A stretch of 64,000 nt of DNA from Spirochaetia bacterium (GTDB lineage Bacteria; Spirochaetota; Leptospiria; Turneriellales; JAOUFE01): positions 95,929 to 159,928 of the forward strand of contig JAOUFY010000001.1 in assembly GCA_029857955.1 (NCBI GenBank), written 5' to 3'. Below, piece by piece: positions 3,038 through 13,013 of this stretch; positions within the stretch are counted from its first letter, which is position 1, and every line of letters begins with the position of its first letter. Position numbers and translations under genes: made by a program. The notes under the pieces are model-generated. The model saw nothing but the letters and a program-made list of their open reading frames with translations. It was not told the origin of the DNA and made no database searches.

Positions 3038-4639
3038 TTAATTTAAATCCTGACGTACATGCGACAAGCTGGTTTTTACTACGGTTTTTTGCAGTTTTTC
3101 AAATGTGTTATGACCTGGAATAACAAAATGTTTATGTATAAAATCCGCTTCTGTCATAAAATACATTAAAATTTCGATTACCCATGGAAAAAGCAGTATA
3201 TCTTTTTTAATTGCTTTTCGAAGACATTTCCAGAATAGCCGGCGCATGTTTTTATCAGAATTAAAAATATAAAACTTTACAGTACGGTACATTGCTCCCA
3301 GGAAATATATCCTGAAATGCCTTGGGTCCATTGCATTTTTCAAATATGAGTATTTATGTATAGATTTAAGATCTACCTGATCGATCAAAGCTGCAAAACG
3401 AATATAAAAGTTTTCAGGTTCATAAAGTCTTCGATAAAGAGCTGCATAACCACTTTGAAGAGCTTCTTTTGTCATTAATTTGGGAATAAAATTTGCCTCC
3501 AGATTGGTATCTCCAGATTCAAGGTCAGCCAGTAAACGACCTTCTGCTTCGAGACGATCCCATAGTTTTGTTCCCCTCATGGCGGTTAACATACTGATCA
3601 ACGGTATAGCTACACCGGCCTGGGTTAAAAAATCATATTGCAAATCAAAAATATCAGACGAATCCGCATCGAATCCAACGATCATTCCGAGGGAAAGAAA
3701 AATTCCCCTTGACTGAATGGTTCGAATGGCCTGCACCAAATCAAGATCAGCATTATGACTTTTATTGGTGCTTAAAAGACTTTCTTTACTTGGAGTTTCT
3801 ACGCCAATAAAAAACCCATAAAAATTTGCATCTACAAATAAATCAATGAGTTCGGGATCTTTAACCACGTTTAACGTAAGCTGGGTAAAAAAACGAATTG
3901 GTTTTTTTATAGAACGATTAAACTTGATAATTTCTTTTAAAAGTGATTTAGCATATACACGATTTCCGATAAAATTATCGTCAGCAAAGAATATTTCTGC
4001 CTTACCCCTGCTGATCAAGTCTTTTAGTTCGGCAATTACATTTTCTACCGGCTTAAAACGAGGTTTGCGGCCAAACAGTGAAACAACATCGCAAAACTCG
4101 CAATCATAGGGACAGCCCCTAGAGGTTTGAATGGGAGCTGAAGAATAATCATCGAGGTTTTTAATTGCGCCCCATCGCGGTACCGGACTAATGGAAAGAT
4201 CGGTAATTTGACCGCCTTCATAGAATTTTTTATACGAATTTCTGCTCCATTCCTCTAAAAATACCGGCCAGACTTTTTCTGCTTCGCCAACAACCACAAC
4301 ATCAAATAATTCCCTGGCTTCTTCAATATGTCCTGAAACAAAAGGACCTCCGCCGACGGTCATGATTCCCATTTCTTTACATTGACTTACAATTTCACGA
4401 ATTCTCGGCAAATGCATGGTAAAACCTGTTATGGCAACCAAATCAATTGAGGTATCAAGTTTTAACTCCTCAACATATTCGTCCAGCAACTCTACTTCAT
4501 ATTGTGGAGGAGTAAGCGCTGCTAGAGTTACCAGACCAAGCGGTGCATGTATTGCTTTCTTTTTGGTAAGCGGTTTCATCGCGCTCATTTGCCAGAAAGT
4601 ATCATGACTCTTTGGCTGTATCATTAGTATTTTTGTCAT
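3038..4639 (-). CDS. B12-binding-domain radical SAM protein (long C-terminal extension)
   Basis: N-terminal Rossmann-like B12-binding region (ITGFT...VGGGPFVSGH) followed by RGCPYDCEFC (CxxxCxxC). 533 aa. Confidence 0.8.
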   Translation of the reverse strand: MTKILMIQPKSHDTFWQMSAMKPLTKKKAIHAPLGLVTLAALTPPQYEVELLDEYVEELKLDTSIDLVAITGFTMHLPRIREIVSQCKEMGIMTVGGGPFVSGHIEEARELFDVVVVGEAEKVWPVFLEEWSRNSYKKFYEGGQITDLSISPVPRWGAIKNLDDYSSAPIQTSRGCPYDCEFCDVVSLFGRKPRFKPVENVIAELKDLISRGKAEIFFADDNFIGNRVYAKSLLKEIIKFNRSIKKPIRFFTQLTLNVVKDPELIDLFVDANFYGFFIGVETPSKESLLSTNKSHNADLDLVQAIRTIQSRGIFLSLGMIVGFDADSSDIFDLQYDFLTQAGVAIPLISMLTAMRGTKLWDRLEAEGRLLADLESGDTNLEANFIPKLMTKEALQSGYAALYRRLYEPENFYIRFAALIDQVDLKSIHKYSYLKNAMDPRHFRIYFLGAMYRTVKFYIFNSDKNMRRLFWKCLRKAIKKDILLFPWVIEILMYFMTEADFIHKHFVIPGHNTFEKLQKTVVKTSLSHVRQDLN

Positions 4640-4843
4640 TTGTGATTCCGTATTTTGAATTTAGAATTGTATCAATTGAAATACTGTACAAATTTGTTTA
4701 ATATTTCAAATTTTCTATTTATATATCAAAAAATAACTGCATATACATACGGACAATTCTTTTTTTAAATAGAATATCTTGCCTCGGGTAACTTCTCAAG
4801 CAGGGTCAATGTTACAGGCATGGAAAGATAAAACGGTAAAAGA

Positions 4844-6910
4844 TCAATTTTTATTTTTAACCATAAATTGCCCATTATTTATAGTAAGCAATATAATTTT
4901 GTTTTTTTCTATTTTAATTTTGCTTTTATAATGTAGCGTATTTTCTGCCGACTTTATTTCATCTTCCCGAAGCGGTTTAAATTCAACATCAATAAAATGA
5001 TCGCCTGTTGCAAGATTTAATTCTTCATAAACCAGCATCGGACGATCATGTCGAAATCCTCCCGGTTTATAAGGTAAAATGGTTTCATTATCATCAATTT
5101 TTATTTTCAACAGATATGAAAGATAGTAAATCTGACAGGCATTTTTTTTTCTCATATGCACTGGAATACTTTTAATTTCAGCGGCCGTATACTCATGACA
5201 TTTTTCAACATATTCACCCTGCATTTTCCAGGAAAGTTTCAACATACCCTGATCATGTTCTTGATCTATAGATAATCTACTAATGGCAGTTATTCCTGTA
5301 ATCAGCAAAAGACCAACCATCATCGCAATAAATGTTTTAATTGGTCTTGATGAGAAAAAGCTTTGAAACACATTTGAATTTTTTAAAATGAATTTATTTT
5401 TAATGGCGTCTGAAAGTTGTGAAAAATCATTTACTCTAATGATGTTATCACGGTCATCAGCTTCCATTAAACGTGGAGCCCGATTGCCGTCAATTCGTTG
5501 ATGTAACCATTCCGGTCCTTTGCGAAACGTACAATTTGAATCAAGACAGCCAAGTACAATGGTTTTTTCATAATGGCGGGCAACGTGATGTAAATGGGTT
5601 GAGTGAATTACGCCGGTACAGGAAACCATAAACACATCGCTGTCGGGTATATGCAGAGATAAACTTATATTATCATTGTGAGAACATGCAAAAATAAAAT
5701 ATTTTTTTAATGCTTCTTTAGAACTCTCTTCCAGTTCCCTGATTAAATGGAGCAAATCACGGGAAGTTCGATCCGTTGGACCAATGGCAAACGTTGAACA
5801 CGAAGCAGCGCATAAACCGCAACTGACACATTTAATCGCATTAACCACCGGAATCATCGAAGACTCCGCTTTAGCGATCAATTCTTTTTGTTTCATAAAT
5901 ACAGATTCTGTCATATCAATGGCGTCAAACGGACAGTCATAGTAACATTGTTTGCATCCGTGACAAAGCTCCAGATCGACCATAGAAACATAATCTTCTT
6001 TTCGAATTTTTACGGAAGGTTTAAAATACCAGGGTATCGCCAATAAAAGTACGTTAAAACCCAGCAGTAAAAATAAAAAACCTGCAGGTTTTAGAGAAAC
6101 TGGAAAATATAGAAAAAATGAAAAGAATGCATCAACAGGAAAATGAAGTGATGTTGAAAATAAATCAGCCTTCTGTAGCAAGGGAGCCGGGATCATCACA
6201 GACGCGGCAATAAACAATCCGATATAAAATACCGTGGTCTTCCAGTTAAAAAAATACTTTGGCAGGGAAATTCTCGATGTATGAAGCCAGATTCCAAAAA
6301 TCATAATCAAGGGTACCGCCAGATGTATAAAGACAACAAAAAAGAAAAAACTATCGCCGGGTAATTTTTCTCCGCTGAAGGTTCTTAAAAGCGATTCGGG
6401 CATCACGGGAATAATATCCATGATTTTTAAGCCTGTAATTCCGATGATTTTTGCATGTTCATCCCAAACAAGTACGTAACCGGTATAGGCAGAAAAAAAC
6501 AAAAGTCCGGTCATTACAACGCCACTGATCCAGCTTAAAATTCGCGGCCCCCAGCTTCTACCCTGTGCCAGCATTTTAAGCATATGGATTAATATCGCAA
6601 CAACAGCCGCATCAGAAGCGTAACGGTGCAACGCCCTTACCCAGCGTATAAAAACACTATTATCCTGCATAGCCACGATTGACTCATAGGGCGAAGCCAG
6701 GCGGTAAAAAAAAATCAAATATAAACCGCTGACCATGACAACAGAGAAAAACAAAACTGCCAGAGTTCCCGCATTGGCTACAGGATTATACTTTGACTCG
6801 GTTATTTTTTCTAACATCAGCCGCAGCCATTTGTAGACAAAGCGGAATATATAAATCTCTTTCGGGAATTTATTTGGACTATAAAGCTGTTCTGACAATT
6901 TTTCTTTCAT
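4844..6910 (-). CDS. multidomain redox protein: di-heme cytochrome b-like membrane domain, 2x[4Fe-4S] ferredoxin motifs, MvhD/FlpD-like Cys domain, TM helix and an unknown C-terminal domain
   Basis: H95-x13-H109 and H196-x13-H210 lie in predicted TM helices. Two cluster motifs: CHGCKQCYYDCP and CVSCGLCAASC. The segment FIFACSHN..VSCTGV..VLGCLDSNC resembles hydrogenase iron-sulfur (MvhD) domains. Confidence 0.6.
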   Translation of the reverse strand: MKEKLSEQLYSPNKFPKEIYIFRFVYKWLRLMLEKITESKYNPVANAGTLAVLFFSVVMVSGLYLIFFYRLASPYESIVAMQDNSVFIRWVRALHRYASDAAVVAILIHMLKMLAQGRSWGPRILSWISGVVMTGLLFFSAYTGYVLVWDEHAKIIGITGLKIMDIIPVMPESLLRTFSGEKLPGDSFFFFVVFIHLAVPLIMIFGIWLHTSRISLPKYFFNWKTTVFYIGLFIAASVMIPAPLLQKADLFSTSLHFPVDAFFSFFLYFPVSLKPAGFLFLLLGFNVLLLAIPWYFKPSVKIRKEDYVSMVDLELCHGCKQCYYDCPFDAIDMTESVFMKQKELIAKAESSMIPVVNAIKCVSCGLCAASCSTFAIGPTDRTSRDLLHLIRELEESSKEALKKYFIFACSHNDNISLSLHIPDSDVFMVSCTGVIHSTHLHHVARHYEKTIVLGCLDSNCTFRKGPEWLHQRIDGNRAPRLMEADDRDNIIRVNDFSQLSDAIKNKFILKNSNVFQSFFSSRPIKTFIAMMVGLLLITGITAISRLSIDQEHDQGMLKLSWKMQGEYVEKCHEYTAAEIKSIPVHMRKKNACQIYYLSYLLKIKIDDNETILPYKPGGFRHDRPMLVYEELNLATGDHFIDVEFKPLREDEIKSAENTLHYKSKIKIEKNKIILLTINNGQFMVKNKN

Positions 6911-7860: not shown

Positions 7861-9579
7861 TTATCCTACTTTCCAGGTAGAAGACAGAATTTTCCAGTTT
7901 ACAAAGAAGTACAATATAAAGGCTACCAGAAATATGAAAACAAGAATCATTGTTCCTTTTGCTCCTTCTTTATGAACTGCGGCAACATTGGCTCCCTGAT
8001 GTACTTGAGCCGATAGCTTAAGGACACCCTGTGGTATGCCGCTTTCGCCGTTTTTAATCGAATCAGCTGTCATTTCTTTACCGAAAAATACAGTCGCAAC
8101 CGCTATCGTGATGAACATAACGGCTCCAAATGCAGCCAAAAGTCCTCCAATACCCATCAATGCTTGAAACAAATTGACAATGTCAGGAAATTGAACGGGG
8201 AAAGGCGAACCTGCAAAGGAAGAATCCCAGTGACGTCTGGGAATACCATACATACCCTGCAAAATCATACCCACTGCCATTACAGAAATACCTGCTCCAA
8301 AAAAATAAGGCTGAACTTTTGCCATACCCCAAAATGCCACACGTTTTCTAAAAATTAACGGCAACACGTAATACGTTACCGCCATAAAAGCCAAAGCTGT
8401 TCCGCCTACAACAGTGACATGAAAATGGCCTGGAATTCTCATGGTATTGTGCGCTATGATATTGATTTGCTCGGTACCCAGAGTAACCCCGGTGATACCT
8501 CCCATAAATCCAAAAATTACCAGCGAAAGCATCATACCTGAAAATCCAGGATCGCTCCATGGAGCTTTACTCAACCACTCAAAGCGTGTATTTACAAAAC
8601 CTTTAAGACGTTGACCAATTTCAATACCGGCAGGAACCGTAAAACCATGGATCATACTGGCCAGTACCGCAAGGTACATTGCATAGGATGTGTTCCAGAT
8701 TTTCCATGCGCTGCCCATTCCCGGGTCGACCAGAAGATGGTGAGCCGACGCCATTGAGATAAATAGTATGTACAGAACAAACGCAACACGACTGATTTTC
8801 TCATTAAGTACCACCCCGCCAACGGTTAATCCGGCCAGCAAATACCATATAGAAACCATCGCCGCAACGTTGATTTGTTGAGATGAATGACCAAGAGCCC
8901 AGAAAATCAATCGATAGATTTCAGGATCCATTTTCATCAAGTTCAGAGACCACAATAACGTTGGTATATAAATCAACGCTCCATGGATTAACGTGATGAT
9001 CGCGATAATTGTTGCTGTTAACGCGCCAAAAGTCACCAACGGTATAGAACCTGGATAGGTTTTATCTTTTTTAGCGGCCACAAGCGTGGCCATAAACAAC
9101 ATACACACAATCAATGCCCCGACGGCAAACAAAATAATCCCGACATAATACAAAGGATCGGCCATCAGCGGCGGATACGAAGTAAACAGTACATCGGCTT
9201 TGCCGGAATAAACCATAACGTTGACAAGAATTGCGCCTAGCATCATTAAACCAAAACTAACCCATCCAAGTTTTGGCGCAGGAAGTCGCGAATTTAACAA
9301 AACCGGACCTGCAAAATACAATACTGCCATTTCAAAAAATATGATGAAAAAAATCAGCATATTTAATCCATGCGAAGTTAACAGGCGATAATACCATTCC
9401 GCATTCAGTAAATGAACAGCCTGCCAGCGTGTAAGAACAATTCCAAACGCAGCGATCACACCCAAGAGCATAAATACTACGGCAACTACAGCATTAGCCT
9501 TAATCAGGTTTTCTGCATTTTTATCCACTTTTAATCCCGTTACGGGACACTTTCTAAACAAGTCAGCTATTGCGTTCAT
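7861..9579 (-). CDS. heme-copper oxidoreductase subunit I, B-family (ba3)-like, lacking the cross-link Tyr
   Basis: 572 aa with TSH70G, TSYPPL, GH231SSQQ, AH280H281 and GH385FH387. Spacing between H231 and H280 is the same as in ba3 CbaA. Position H+4 is Gln instead of Tyr. Confidence 0.85.
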   Translation of the reverse strand: MNAIADLFRKCPVTGLKVDKNAENLIKANAVVAVVFMLLGVIAAFGIVLTRWQAVHLLNAEWYYRLLTSHGLNMLIFFIIFFEMAVLYFAGPVLLNSRLPAPKLGWVSFGLMMLGAILVNVMVYSGKADVLFTSYPPLMADPLYYVGIILFAVGALIVCMLFMATLVAAKKDKTYPGSIPLVTFGALTATIIAIITLIHGALIYIPTLLWSLNLMKMDPEIYRLIFWALGHSSQQINVAAMVSIWYLLAGLTVGGVVLNEKISRVAFVLYILFISMASAHHLLVDPGMGSAWKIWNTSYAMYLAVLASMIHGFTVPAGIEIGQRLKGFVNTRFEWLSKAPWSDPGFSGMMLSLVIFGFMGGITGVTLGTEQINIIAHNTMRIPGHFHVTVVGGTALAFMAVTYYVLPLIFRKRVAFWGMAKVQPYFFGAGISVMAVGMILQGMYGIPRRHWDSSFAGSPFPVQFPDIVNLFQALMGIGGLLAAFGAVMFITIAVATVFFGKEMTADSIKNGESGIPQGVLKLSAQVHQGANVAAVHKEGAKGTMILVFIFLVAFILYFFVNWKILSSTWKVG

Positions 9580-10127
9580 AACGATTCCCCCACAATGATT
9601 TTACCGACCATATTGTGATGGCCGATACCGCAAAATTCGTTACAAATGATGTTGAAATCACCTGCAATCGAAGGCGTAATTTTTAATCCATAATCATAAC
9701 CCGGAATAACCTGAAAGTTTAGTTTCGCAGGGTACAGACTAAACCCATGATTTACATCTACCGAAGAAAGATGAAGCGTATATTCAACTCCCTTCTTTAG
9801 TTTAATAACGGGGGTCCATTCCCACATATGCCCCAGCAGATAAACGTCGCTTCCTGCCGGAGGCTCGACTACGGGAATACCATTTTCGGTACCCACCTGA
9901 TAATCTTTTATAAAACGATCTACCCTGGCCTGATAATCTGCTTCGATAACTCTGGTACGAATACCCGACGGATTTTGTCCGCCTTTGATATGCCAAAACG
10001 GCATCATGCCAAATAAAACAAGGCACCAGATAAAAGCAATGGTGATCCATCTTTTTTCCTGGGAAGCCGCCGGTTTCCACCATATTCCTTCAGGGGAAAC
10101 AATCCCCGAATGCATTTCCATATCCAT
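9576..10127 (-). CDS. heme-copper oxidoreductase subunit II (CuA cupredoxin)
   Basis: One N-terminal TM helix. CuA ligands NHGF...CNEFCGIGHHNM (H, C-x3-C-x3-H-x2-M). 4-nt overlap with subunit I. Confidence 0.85.
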   Translation of the reverse strand: MDMEMHSGIVSPEGIWWKPAASQEKRWITIAFIWCLVLFGMMPFWHIKGGQNPSGIRTRVIEADYQARVDRFIKDYQVGTENGIPVVEPPAGSDVYLLGHMWEWTPVIKLKKGVEYTLHLSSVDVNHGFSLYPAKLNFQVIPGYDYGLKITPSIAGDFNIICNEFCGIGHHNMVGKIIVGESL

Positions 10128-10293
10128 TATTCTCTCCTTTTTTTTAATTCTAAATTCTTAACTAATATTGAAAGTGTTTTGATAAAAAAGATTTCCTGCT
10201 AACCTTAAAATACAGAAAATAATATAACCATATTTTAAAGCACTCTATGGTTTAAATTGACTTTTTTCTTTTTTAGTGATCTTTGTGTACCCT

Positions 10294-10442
10294 GGTACTA
10301 TGTCTGTTTAATTTATACATGTTCAAACTTAAATTGGCTCCGCATTAATTTTAAAAATGGCGAAGCGCACATACTTGTTAAGTAGCGTTTCCGCTTGAAT
10401 TTGCTTTGCGCAAGCGGAACAAATCAAAAAGACACGGTACTA
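10294..10442. mobile_element. MITE-like intergenic repeat, family A, copy 1
   Basis: About 136-nt core with imperfect terminal inverted repeats (TGTCTGTTTAATTT / AAATCAAAAAGACA). It is flanked by the direct repeat GGTACTA (10294..10300 and 10436..10442). A second copy lies at 39990..40209. Confidence 0.6.
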
Positions 10443-10465
10443 GAGAGAAATCGTTTCATAATACT

Positions 10466-10630
10466 TTAAGGTAACGTACCTTTCGGTAAACTCAACACTT
10501 CATATAGTCCCCAGATCGTATAAAACACAAACATAACTCCCAGTCCAGCAAACAGCAACAAGAAAGGACTGTCGAGTAGTCGTTGACCCAATGGTATACT
10601 TTTGTCTTTATTTTTTTCTAAATCACCCAT
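10466..10630 (-). CDS. unannotated 54-aa single-TM protein, candidate oxidase subunit IIa
   Basis: Hand translation: MGDLEKNKDKSIPLGQRLLDSPFLLLFAGLGVMFVFYTIWGLYEVLSLPKGTLP. AAGGAG lies 5 nt before the ATG. It sits upstream of subunit II on the same strand, as cbaD does in Thermus. It is below the ORF-track length cut-off. Confidence 0.5.
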   Translation of the reverse strand: MGDLEKNKDKSIPLGQRLLDSPFLLLFAGLGVMFVFYTIWGLYEVLSLPKGTLP

Positions 10631-12294: not shown

Positions 12295-13013
12295 CCTGTG
12301 CCTTATACGACGAGGCGTTTGAATTGATCAAGATTTCAAAAAGACAAAAAAATAATTCTATATCTTATTATTCAGGCACACATAAAGGAATACCTTTTTC
12401 ACTATTTTTAACAAAACCAGGTTTACGTAAAAATACAAACCAATTTATGAAATGGTTAAAGATCAACCACATAACTGAACTTCTTCAAACCGGTTTCTGC
12501 GGAGCACTTTCAAACCTGTATCGGCCTGGCGATGTATGCCAGATTAAACATGTTTTAAGTATAAATAAAATTACAGAATATAATCAACCTTCTGCTCAAT
12601 ACCATTTTACAAATGATGATCATTACATTAAAGATGATAAATCACATAGTCTGCTTACGGTTAACTATCCGGTTTTAACCATAGACGAACGTGACAGCAT
12701 TAACGACAAATATACTGCAGATTTTATCGATATGGAAGCATGGCATATTTGTAATTTACTAAATGACAATTTTCCTGAGGTGAAAAGCAAAATCATTAAG
12801 ATAGTCGGCGATGTTCCGGGAGAAGAACCTCTGATGAGAAATGAAATTCAAATGCGAACTTTTTTTACGGAGCATAGCTTTAAAAATCGAGTTAAAATTT
12901 CTTTAAAAACAGGTATCTCTTTTTTTGAGCTTTACTATAGAAAACGGATGTTACAAAAAACCTTAAAAACCGCAGTTTTAAATTACATGGAAACCAAAAT
13001 AAGAAATAATTAA
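12282..13013 (+). CDS. nucleoside phosphorylase-superfamily protein (MTA/SAH nucleosidase- or futalosine hydrolase-like)
   Basis: Weak motif resemblance (TGFCGAL, DFIDMEAWHI, KIVGDV). It overlaps coaB by 13 nt and thiD by 1 nt, so it is probably co-transcribed. Confidence 0.4.
   Translation: MLGITCALYDEAFELIKISKRQKNNSISYYSGTHKGIPFSLFLTKPGLRKNTNQFMKWLKINHITELLQTGFCGALSNLYRPGDVCQIKHVLSINKITEYNQPSAQYHFTNDDHYIKDDKSHSLLTVNYPVLTIDERDSINDKYTADFIDMEAWHICNLLNDNFPEVKSKIIKIVGDVPGEEPLMRNEIQMRTFFTEHSFKNRVKISLKTGISFFELYYRKRMLQKTLKTAVLNYMETKIRNN

Follow-up and report, generated by a model that had tools for sequence, protein, structure and literature searches.

Within a 64-kb stretch of Spirochaetia DNA (64,000 nucleotides (nt) of contig JAOUFY010000001.1, assembly GCA_029857955.1; hereafter the window), the last gene of a heme-copper oxidoreductase cluster encodes an uncharacterised membrane protein whose sequence marks it as built for carrying electrons across the membrane. 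This fusion protein of 688 amino acids (aa), which joins a cytochrome b to iron-sulfur (Fe-S) domains, is probably the missing redox partner of the enzyme encoded beside it, a heme-copper enzyme devoid of the cross-linked tyrosine (Tyr-less) that probably reduces nitric oxide (NO). The partnership is likely because the protein has an electron-carrying build and adjoins the enzyme genes in many phyla. Our leading interpretation, to which we give slightly less than an even chance, is that the fusion would act as a dedicated quinol-linked membrane electron-transfer subunit of an eNOR-type NO reductase and would be a Rieske-less relative of the bc complexes. The gene closes a co-directional row made of a 54-aa open reading frame (ORF), subunit II, subunit I, SCO1/SenC and the fusion (Table 1). 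A first reading of the window from its letters (the sequence-only reading) had placed the ORF 51 nt downstream of the senC stop on the same strand, and both its coordinates and its strand were confirmed. An identical protein from a Spirochaetia metagenome-assembled genome (P0001) has 'cytochrome b N-terminal domain-containing protein' as its sole annotation. The AlphaFold2 (AF2) model of the fusion had a pLDDT of 87.9 and a pTM of 0.86.

Sequence and structure comparisons indicated that the N-terminal part of the fusion is a cytochrome b. Two H-x13-H pairs in transmembrane (TM) helices, H95/H109 and H196/H210, had been noticed in the sequence-only reading; they lie inside predicted helices B and D, and all four histidines are invariant in 88 homologues. 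Pfam, profile and structure searches agreed that these pairs belong to a genuine cytochrome b fold: the Pfam family Cytochrome_B matched residues 37-211 (46.7 bits against a cutoff of 27.2, E=4e-12), the family profile searched against the PDB retrieved cytochrome b6 chains (E=9e-22) as well as bc1 cytochromes b, and Foldseek aligned the AF2 model with bc1 cytochrome b over ~290-340 columns (probability 1.0). H95 and H196 are the predicted p-side heme ligands, H109 and H210 the n-side ones. A spacing of x13 in both pairs is bc1-like; b6 has x14 in helix D. The median identity to homologues over the cytochrome b core was 47.5%.

The core is followed by helices E and F, with a p-side ef loop that has a PEWY-like motif: VDAF in the window protein, TDWF in the family consensus, with xDW[FY] as the variant. 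Residue D260 of this loop was conserved in 87 of the 88 sequences. It probably takes the position of the PEWY glutamate, since the two are paired when the family profile ADllaiPgrvatDWFY (loop ADLLxxPGRxxTDWFY) is aligned with bovine ANPLNTPPHIKPEWYF and PetD ADPFATPLEILPEWYF. When a small sub-profile was searched against the PDB, neither PetD nor bc1 was retrieved at E<=0.001. The cd loop, SAxTG[FY]V[LM]VWD, matches TGYSLPWDQ of b6. Arg46 occupies the position of b6 Cys35, the cysteine of heme cn, and therefore no heme cn site is expected; the bc1 Qi-site histidine is absent from the sequence alignment, and helices G and H of bc-type cytochromes b are missing. By these sequence criteria, the cytochrome b of the fusion is of the bc type, has both heme sites and probably retains a Qo-type pocket, predicted to open on the periplasmic side.

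The cytochrome b part is followed by two CxxCxxCxxxC motifs (C316/319/322/326 and C361/364/367/371), which had been picked out from the start and whose eight cysteines were all invariant among the 88 homologues. Residues 311-373 matched the Pfam families Fer4 (PF00037; 35.1 bits against 21.1) and Fer4_7 (PF12838; 31.7 against 27), and the profile search of the PDB reached the C-terminal ferredoxin domain of HdrA (5odc_A residues 566-649, E=3e-16). The median identity over this domain was 44%. The cysteine-bearing segment that comes next had been likened to MvhD/FlpD. FlpD (PF02662) stays below threshold in the window protein (14.8 bits against 22.3, E=0.03); the assignment is backed at the level of the family, PF02662 reaching 38.4 bits in the homologue of locus L045 and being recorded for many other homologues. 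Two of its cysteines, C431 and C455, are invariant and the other two, C409 and C460, are shared by at least 90% of the homologues; this MvhD-like domain presumably binds a [2Fe-2S] cluster. Using the NCBIfam model HdrA2, residues 301-475 of the fusion were aligned to positions 564-729 of 777, a region made of the ferredoxin and fused MvhD parts (E=2.8e-11). A sub-profile of the MvhD-like part had three different MvhD chains as its best genuine PDB matches, all weak (E=0.06-1.4). From these alignments we take the ferredoxin and MvhD-like parts to be one cassette homologous to the C-terminus of HdrA2. The predicted cytoplasmic chain of two [4Fe-4S] clusters and one MvhD-type site is attached at the position that corresponds to the Qi site of bc complexes. 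Because the ligands are invariant across phyla, chance can be excluded as the source of the motifs of the fusion.

Hydropathy and homology indicated seven TM helices and an N-terminus inside, with the Fe-S domains on the cytoplasmic and the C-terminal domain on the periplasmic side. The sequence-only reading had left the side of the Fe-S domains to a topology prediction, which placed them in the cytoplasm. The seventh helix, found in a region with a median identity of 13.9%, is predicted to return the chain to the periplasm. This further helix and a C-terminal domain of roughly 140 aa without a known motif were both recovered; the domain measures 143 aa, and no Pfam family was found for it in 50 members. 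Foldseek detected no fold relative of the domain in the PDB, the matches being generic beta-sandwiches (best E=0.006, TM-score at most 0.41). A Rieske, cupredoxin, PCuAC or FixG_C identity was rejected, with no support from ligand motifs, Pfam or fold. Conserved residues include C571, E578, H585-M586-R587, C592 and D622-R623-P624. Just C571, E578, M586 and C592 are invariant through the most divergent C-terminal domains; H585 is lost in Defluviimonas. Candidate ligands are limited to C571, H585, M586 and C592.

The C-terminal domain also occurs apart from the rest of the protein. On its own it formed 532 clusters at 50% identity, and many of its homologues stand alone as proteins of 165-200 aa that are anchored by an N-terminal TM helix. 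The stand-alone gene overlaps by 4 nt the end of a gene for a 513-557-aa cytochrome b/Fer4/FlpD protein, and the split pair also lies beside COX1, subunit II, the small ORF and SCO1. This split form, with its two translationally coupled genes, is common in Rhodobacterales and other Alphaproteobacteria. A plasmid of the cultured Defluviimonas sp. SAOS-178_SWC (NZ_CP156080.1, locus L085) carries it in the order small ORF, subunit II, subunit I (53% identical), heme o synthase, SCO, cytochrome b/Fe-S protein (526 aa), 172-aa protein and hemerythrin, the hemerythrin-family gene (12517-12921 of the locus) directly following the split system. The heme o synthase gene found here between subunit I and SCO also adjoins the Thermomicrobium enzyme (L086). 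Since the split form exists with a 4-nt gene overlap, the periplasmic domain can be regarded as a separate TM-anchored, subunit-like part. By analogy, its layout resembles that of a Rieske protein, TM-anchored and with a predicted placement like that of the Rieske head.

Linkage was surveyed in 80 loci by tblastn with the window proteins, and all ORFs of these loci were clustered. The fusion family occupies at least 577 loci in a one-genome-per-species collection, with more than 1280 homologue matches for the fused form and 4425 at E<=1e-10 for a split form. Its hosts belong to Bdellovibrionota, Gemmatimonadota, Methylomirabilota/Rokubacteria, Verrucomicrobiota, Eisenbacteria, Latescibacterota, Spirochaetia and Alphaproteobacteria. 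Subunit I was found in 72 of the 80 loci and either subunit I or SenC in 76; the remaining four loci end at contig edges. SenC adjoins the fusion in 68 of the 80. A reverse survey that started from subunit I found the fused or the split protein alongside in three out of three homologues. Locus L045 was considered as an enzyme-less counter-example and rejected, because the locus is truncated by a contig end on the flank that may hold the enzyme genes, as comparison with the layout of L082 indicates. Two layouts were seen: subunit II, subunit I, senC and fusion in one direction, and a divergent arrangement in Gemmatimonadota. Four conserved gene families and the small ORF surround the fusion gene, and ORF clustering revealed no further conserved neighbour besides the 54-aa ORF. 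The homologues are not scattered: wherever a locus permits a judgement they are, with hardly an exception, tied to a Tyr-less CuA heme-copper enzyme. The idea of a dedicated electron-entry module, put forward in the sequence-only reading, therefore stands in one part, since this linkage gives strong genomic support to a module dedicated to this oxidoreductase; its other part, the entry of electrons at CuA with their direction and donor, is what we infer.

The same survey showed what these clusters lack. As had been observed for the cluster in the window, they are free of a conserved cytochrome c gene: CxxCH was absent from every ORF of at least 60 aa in the window, and CxxCH ORFs occurred in just 19 of the 80 loci, where they were mostly nitrite reductase genes. 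No ORF with a Rieske motif (CxH...CxxH) and no conserved gene for a cytoplasmic partner (flavoprotein, hydrogenase) was found in the 80 loci. Between phyla as distant as Spirochaetia, Bdellovibrionota, Gemmatimonadota and Verrucomicrobiota, subunits I and II keep 59-81% identity, whereas SenC and the fusion reach just 26-40% over the same loci. This contrast suggests either that the catalytic subunits are very strongly constrained or that the cluster has been transferred laterally. Relatives of the enzyme on Thermus plasmids and in Thermomicrobium (45% identity, GHGAQQVN) are accompanied neither by SenC nor by the fusion.

The partner enzyme was assigned from its own sequence and gene order. 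Subunit I is related to the B family (best PDB matches 7deg and T. thermophilus ba3); it has the HH pair, and in the alignment with T. thermophilus ba3 its GHSSQQIN stands opposite GHPIVYFW. GHxxQQIN, with Gln at the position of the cross-linked Tyr, recurs in each of the 78 subunit I sequences linked to the fusion, none of which has Tyr. Among the ba3 K-channel positions S309 and T315 are conserved and T312 is His. The CuA motif is kept in subunit II of 78 of 79 related loci. Gln at the Tyr position denotes eNOR and Asn sNOR (PMC8756737 Table A4), eNOR keeps the B-type K-channel (PMC11214002), and the common eNOR operon order is II, I, heme o synthase, sco1 (bioRxiv 10.64898/2026.01.22.701106), with which the Defluviimonas gene order agrees. 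The Gln, the B-type K-channel residues and the operon order thus point to eNOR rather than sNOR, and we favour an eNOR-type enzyme on the strength of motif, K-channel, CuA and gene order. The motif speaks against an sNOR identity: the aligned position is Gln and not Asn, an Asn lying two residues further on. Linkage to senC is common to sNOR clusters (norSY-senC-orf1) and the present cluster. No ammonia-oxidiser protein that would equate the fusion with orf1 (NE0681) of the norSY-senC-orf1 clusters was among the homologue matches listed, and the literature yielded nothing under the locus tags. In similar clusters the fourth gene encodes a ~190-aa six-TM protein (PMC3475470). Haloarchaeal plasmid matches were rejected as eNOR references, being ordinary ba3 oxidases with GHPVVY.

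Genes related to NO are found next to many of these clusters: an Rrf2 regulator in ~35 loci, a full NirS in 7, a NirK-like protein in ~9 and a Crp/Fnr regulator in one locus. Examples lie at 3935-6097 and 11803-13534 of L091, 14708-15725 of L090 and 9465-9842 of L038 (Gemmatimonadota). In Gemmatimonadota, the Rrf2 (NsrR-like) gene stands between the divergent fusion gene and enzyme operon. The window itself has no NirS, NirK-like, Rrf2 or Crp/Fnr neighbour genes. As judged from gene content, the neighbouring Nir and Rrf2 genes support an NO reductase function of the partner enzyme.

Table 1. Features of the fusion protein and of the gene cluster, in window coordinates; residue numbers refer to the fusion protein.
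Feature	Position	Strand	Basis or content
Whole 688-aa fusion ORF	4844..6910	-	cytochrome b + 2x[4Fe-4S] + MvhD-like domain + TM helix + predicted periplasmic domain
Cytochrome b core, residues 37-215, predicted helices A-D	6266..6802	-	PF00033
Predicted helices E and F with p-side ef loop, residues 216-300	6011..6265	-	Foldseek, family profile
Predicted cytoplasmic 2x[4Fe-4S] ferredoxin domain, residues 301-395	5726..6010	-	Fer4/Fer4_7, eight invariant Cys
MvhD/FlpD-like domain, residues 396-485, four Cys (C409, C431, C455, C460)	5456..5725	-	HdrA2 alignment, PF02662 in homologues
Poorly conserved linker and predicted seventh TM helix (residues 526-544)	5276..5455	-	hydropathy 2.11; AF2 helix 522-544
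Predicted periplasmic beta-sandwich domain, residues 546-688 (~143 aa)	4847..5275	-	AF2 pLDDT 91.6
SCO1/SenC homologue, 298 aa	6962..7858	-	Pfam PF02630 E=7e-17
Heme-copper subunit I, 572 aa, Tyr-less	7861..9579	-	Pfam COX1 E=2e-62
Subunit II, 183 aa, complete CuA motif H...CNEFCGIGHHNM	9576..10127	-	CuA motif
Conserved 54-aa single-TM ORF	10466..10630	-	tblastn; strong AAGGAGAGAAT ribosome-binding site ahead

In the mechanism that we favour, quinol would be oxidised at the Qo-like site. One electron would exit at the periplasmic face and pass to CuA of subunit II, with the C-terminal domain as a docking or relay element; the other would pass from heme bp to heme bn, to the [4Fe-4S] pair and to the [2Fe-2S] cluster, and from there to (or in exchange with) a cytoplasmic carrier. 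The fusion would then be a bc-like device with three changes: a cytoplasmic Fe-S wire instead of the Qi site, a TM-anchored beta-sandwich instead of the Rieske protein, and direct hand-over to CuA instead of cytochrome c1/c. Such a cluster would amount to a self-contained quinol:NO oxidoreductase needing neither bc1 nor cytochrome c. A quinol-based electron bifurcation by this Rieske-less bc-type complex is conceivable too, although we rate it clearly unlikely. The highly exergonic NO reduction at the CuA enzyme would pull the first electron, and the second, low-potential one would travel via the hemes b and the Hdr/Mvh-type cassette to reduce ferredoxin, or NAD(P)+ in relatives fused to flavin adenine dinucleotide (FAD) and NADH domains; the periplasmic Cys/Cys/Met/His/Glu domain would be a new copper or docking relay replacing the Rieske head.

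Several points weigh against the quinol-linked role. The survey of conserved residues revealed no evident redox cofactor in the periplasmic domain, and the high-potential exit of the Qo-like site is therefore left without an evident carrier. The 80 loci offer no conserved cytoplasmic partner gene to receive the second electron. Many hosts (Rhodobacterales, Gemmatimonadota, Bdellovibrionota) should have bc1 and cytochrome c anyway. The fusion evolves at a SenC-like rate (30-38% identity, against 59-81% for subunits I/II), and the Thermus and Thermomicrobium enzymes do without it. The first two of these points and the SenC-like rate weaken all electron-donor models alike.

Electrons may also run outwards through the protein, a reading that we hold to be rather unlikely. 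A cytoplasmic reductant (ferredoxin, or NAD(P)H via a separate or fused flavoprotein) would feed the MvhD-like domain, and electrons would pass through the [4Fe-4S] clusters and the hemes b to CuA, with the quinol pocket secondary or vestigial; by analogy, the design would resemble NADPH-oxidase or cytochrome b561-type transmembrane reductases. The order of cofactors, [2Fe-2S], 2x[4Fe-4S], heme bn and heme bp, spans the membrane as such a wire would, MvhD domains normally bridge two proteins (textbook knowledge of Mvh-Hdr complexes), and the window has no cytochrome c gene. A Ferrigenium relative with FAD and NADH-binding domains on one chain has also been reported (bioRxiv 10.64898/2026.01.22.701106). 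Outward flow does not account, however, for how strongly the Qo-type cd loop and D260 are conserved, and the route would begin without a conserved cytoplasmic donor gene and end without a periplasmic cofactor bridging heme bp and CuA.

The position of the gene directly beside senC, seen in most of the loci, suggests a role in biogenesis, the chief competing reading, which we nevertheless regard as doubtful. Together with SenC, the fusion would supply periplasmic reducing power, either reducing Cu(II) to Cu(I) or keeping the cysteines of SenC and CuA reduced, in a layout comparable to that of CcoG. Consistent with this idea, its evolutionary rate matches SenC and not the catalytic subunits, the enzyme relatives without the fusion also lack SenC in the cluster, and the periplasmic Cys, Cys, Met, Glu and usually His would make a plausible copper set, like the Cys2His site of Sco. 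However, no sequence relationship to CcoG/FixG was detected, with no Fer4_5, Fer4_18 or FixG_C match in the protein or in 50 C-terminal homologues, H585 is not universal, and a full bc-type quinol site with a five-cofactor wire far exceeds the task. Many eNOR operons have sco1 without cytochrome b genes (bioRxiv 10.64898/2026.01.22.701106). An inward redox loop of the NarI/HdrE type, in which quinol would be oxidised at the periplasmic side and both electrons delivered to a cytoplasmic acceptor (e.g. for repair or detoxification under NO stress) by a protein co-regulated with the NO reductase and exchanging no electrons with it, is improbable: it fits the topology, with the quinol site outside and the Fe-S domains inside as in NarGHI, HdrDE and DsrMK-type modules (textbook), the Rrf2/NsrR-type regulators beside many clusters and the hemerythrin gene after the Defluviimonas cluster, yet it explains neither the conserved periplasmic domain nor the tracking of one narrow subclade of one enzyme family at every locus, and no acceptor enzyme is encoded nearby.

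The remaining genes of the cluster showed features of their own. The 54-aa ORF lies upstream of subunit II in 77 other loci (40-76% identity by tblastn), including those of Thermus, Thermomicrobium and Defluviimonas, and probably encodes a small enzyme subunit that has escaped annotation and may be compared with subunit IIa of ba3. In the window it is separated from subunit II by an unusually long spacer of 338 nt (10128-10465) with a hairpin, TTCCGCTTG...CAAGCGGAA, near 10385-10420; in loci with called genes the two nearly abut or overlap, with the exception of L082 (~50 nt). The small ORF and subunit II have the same ribosome-binding site, AAGGAGAGAATA. SenC has a ~130-aa N-terminal extension that looks like three TM helices rather than the usual single anchor, and its Sco domain (146-277) retains CxxxC (CETIC). 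The window has a G+C content of 35%. A promoter and terminator scan gave no signal over background. The gene 204 nt downstream of the fusion encodes a B12-binding radical SAM protein with DUF4070 (3038-4639, minus strand), followed by MsrA (2423-2983) and subunit D of a V-type ATPase (1790-2374). The B12-radical SAM protein and MsrA were rejected as parts of the system: neither is conserved in related loci, with one weak match each. On the Thermus thermophilus plasmid pTthSNM6-6b (L087), the Tyr-less enzyme is found with the small ORF and subunit II in an island that also holds an Rrf2 regulator, a multicopper oxidase (NirK-like), a cytochrome P460 and a cytochrome c.

Collectively, these data add four elements to what has been described: within a large eNOR-type subclade, fusion and enzyme are associated as a rule; the full architecture includes MvhD-like and periplasmic domains; the protein exists in fused and split forms; and the clusters have neither a Rieske gene nor a conserved cytochrome c gene. 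To our knowledge, the physiological electron donors of alternative NO reductases are not known, and eNOR assays have been limited to ascorbate/TMPD (tetramethyl-p-phenylenediamine). A conserved membrane partner with five cofactors would give the donor question a concrete, testable answer, and would also show whether this route to nitrous oxide conserves energy. By abundance, alternative heme-copper NO reductases (eNOR, sNOR and others) are reported to make up about half of the NO reductases in nature (PMC11214002). With Hdr/Mvh-type Fe-S domains wired to it and no Rieske partner, a bc-type cytochrome b would offer an unusual natural test case for the Qo site. Cultured Alphaproteobacteria, among them Defluviimonas salinarum, Marivita sp. 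and Pararhizobium sp. IMCC3301, carry the split form, and genetics and biochemistry are therefore feasible.

One known system with a comparable setting is CcoG (FixG/RdxB), the cupric reductase of cbb3 assembly, which resides in the membrane, has a beta-sandwich and two [4Fe-4S] clusters on the cytoplasmic side, is encoded next to a heme-copper enzyme and works with SenC-type chaperones. It has no detectable homology to the fusion and lacks the hemes, the quinol-site fold and the MvhD domain. A dedicated quinol-linked di-heme b anchor wired to Fe-S domains and serving one reductase is shared with NarC/NarB, NarI-NarH, HdrE-HdrD, DsrMK and QmoC, and QmoB and QmoC combine MvhD-like and Fe-S/cytochrome b parts. 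However, these systems use NarI/HdrE-type cytochromes b, with the exception of NarC, which keeps its Rieske partner, and they feed cytoplasmic or Tat-exported catalytic subunits and not a CuA enzyme.

In published accounts, sNOR and eNOR appear as two-subunit enzymes accompanied by SenC, and a paper from 2022 includes, uncommented, a 'cytochrome b6 / DMSOR_beta-like / FlpD' protein among the neighbours of nirS. The sequence-only reading knew of no characterised protein with the architecture of the fusion; this stands, though related eNOR-operon genes and a similar, speculative role appear in a 2026 preprint (bioRxiv 10.64898/2026.01.22.701106). According to that preprint, the eNOR operon of Ferrigenium straubiae has sco1 and two cytochrome b/[Fe-S] genes, called 'rather unusual', one of whose products carries FAD and NADH domains; the proteins were expressed together with eNOR in the denitrifying proteome, and a supercomplex with eNOR coupling NO reduction to NAD+ reduction was proposed (bioRxiv 10.64898/2026.01.22.701106). 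The Ferrigenium proteins are known from sequence and expression and are likened to the fusion by description; the preprint does not include the MvhD-like and periplasmic domains, the fused 688-aa form or the wide distribution.

Two other known systems resemble separate parts of the fusion. With the C-terminus of HdrA2 and MvhD it shares a 2x[4Fe-4S] ferredoxin followed by a four-Cys MvhD-like domain as one cassette, but here the cassette is carried by a membrane cytochrome b and not by a flavoprotein, has no FAD domain and occurs in hosts that are not methanogens. With the cytochrome b of bc1 and b6f (helices E and F of PetD included) it shares the four-helix core, two bis-His hemes, the cd loop, an ef loop with a probable PEWY counterpart, and helices E and F. 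Unlike those complexes, the fusion clusters encode no Rieske protein and no cytochrome c1 or f, and the fusion itself has no helices G and H, no heme cn site and no Qi histidine; it adds instead the n-side Fe-S domains, an extra TM helix and the predicted periplasmic domain.

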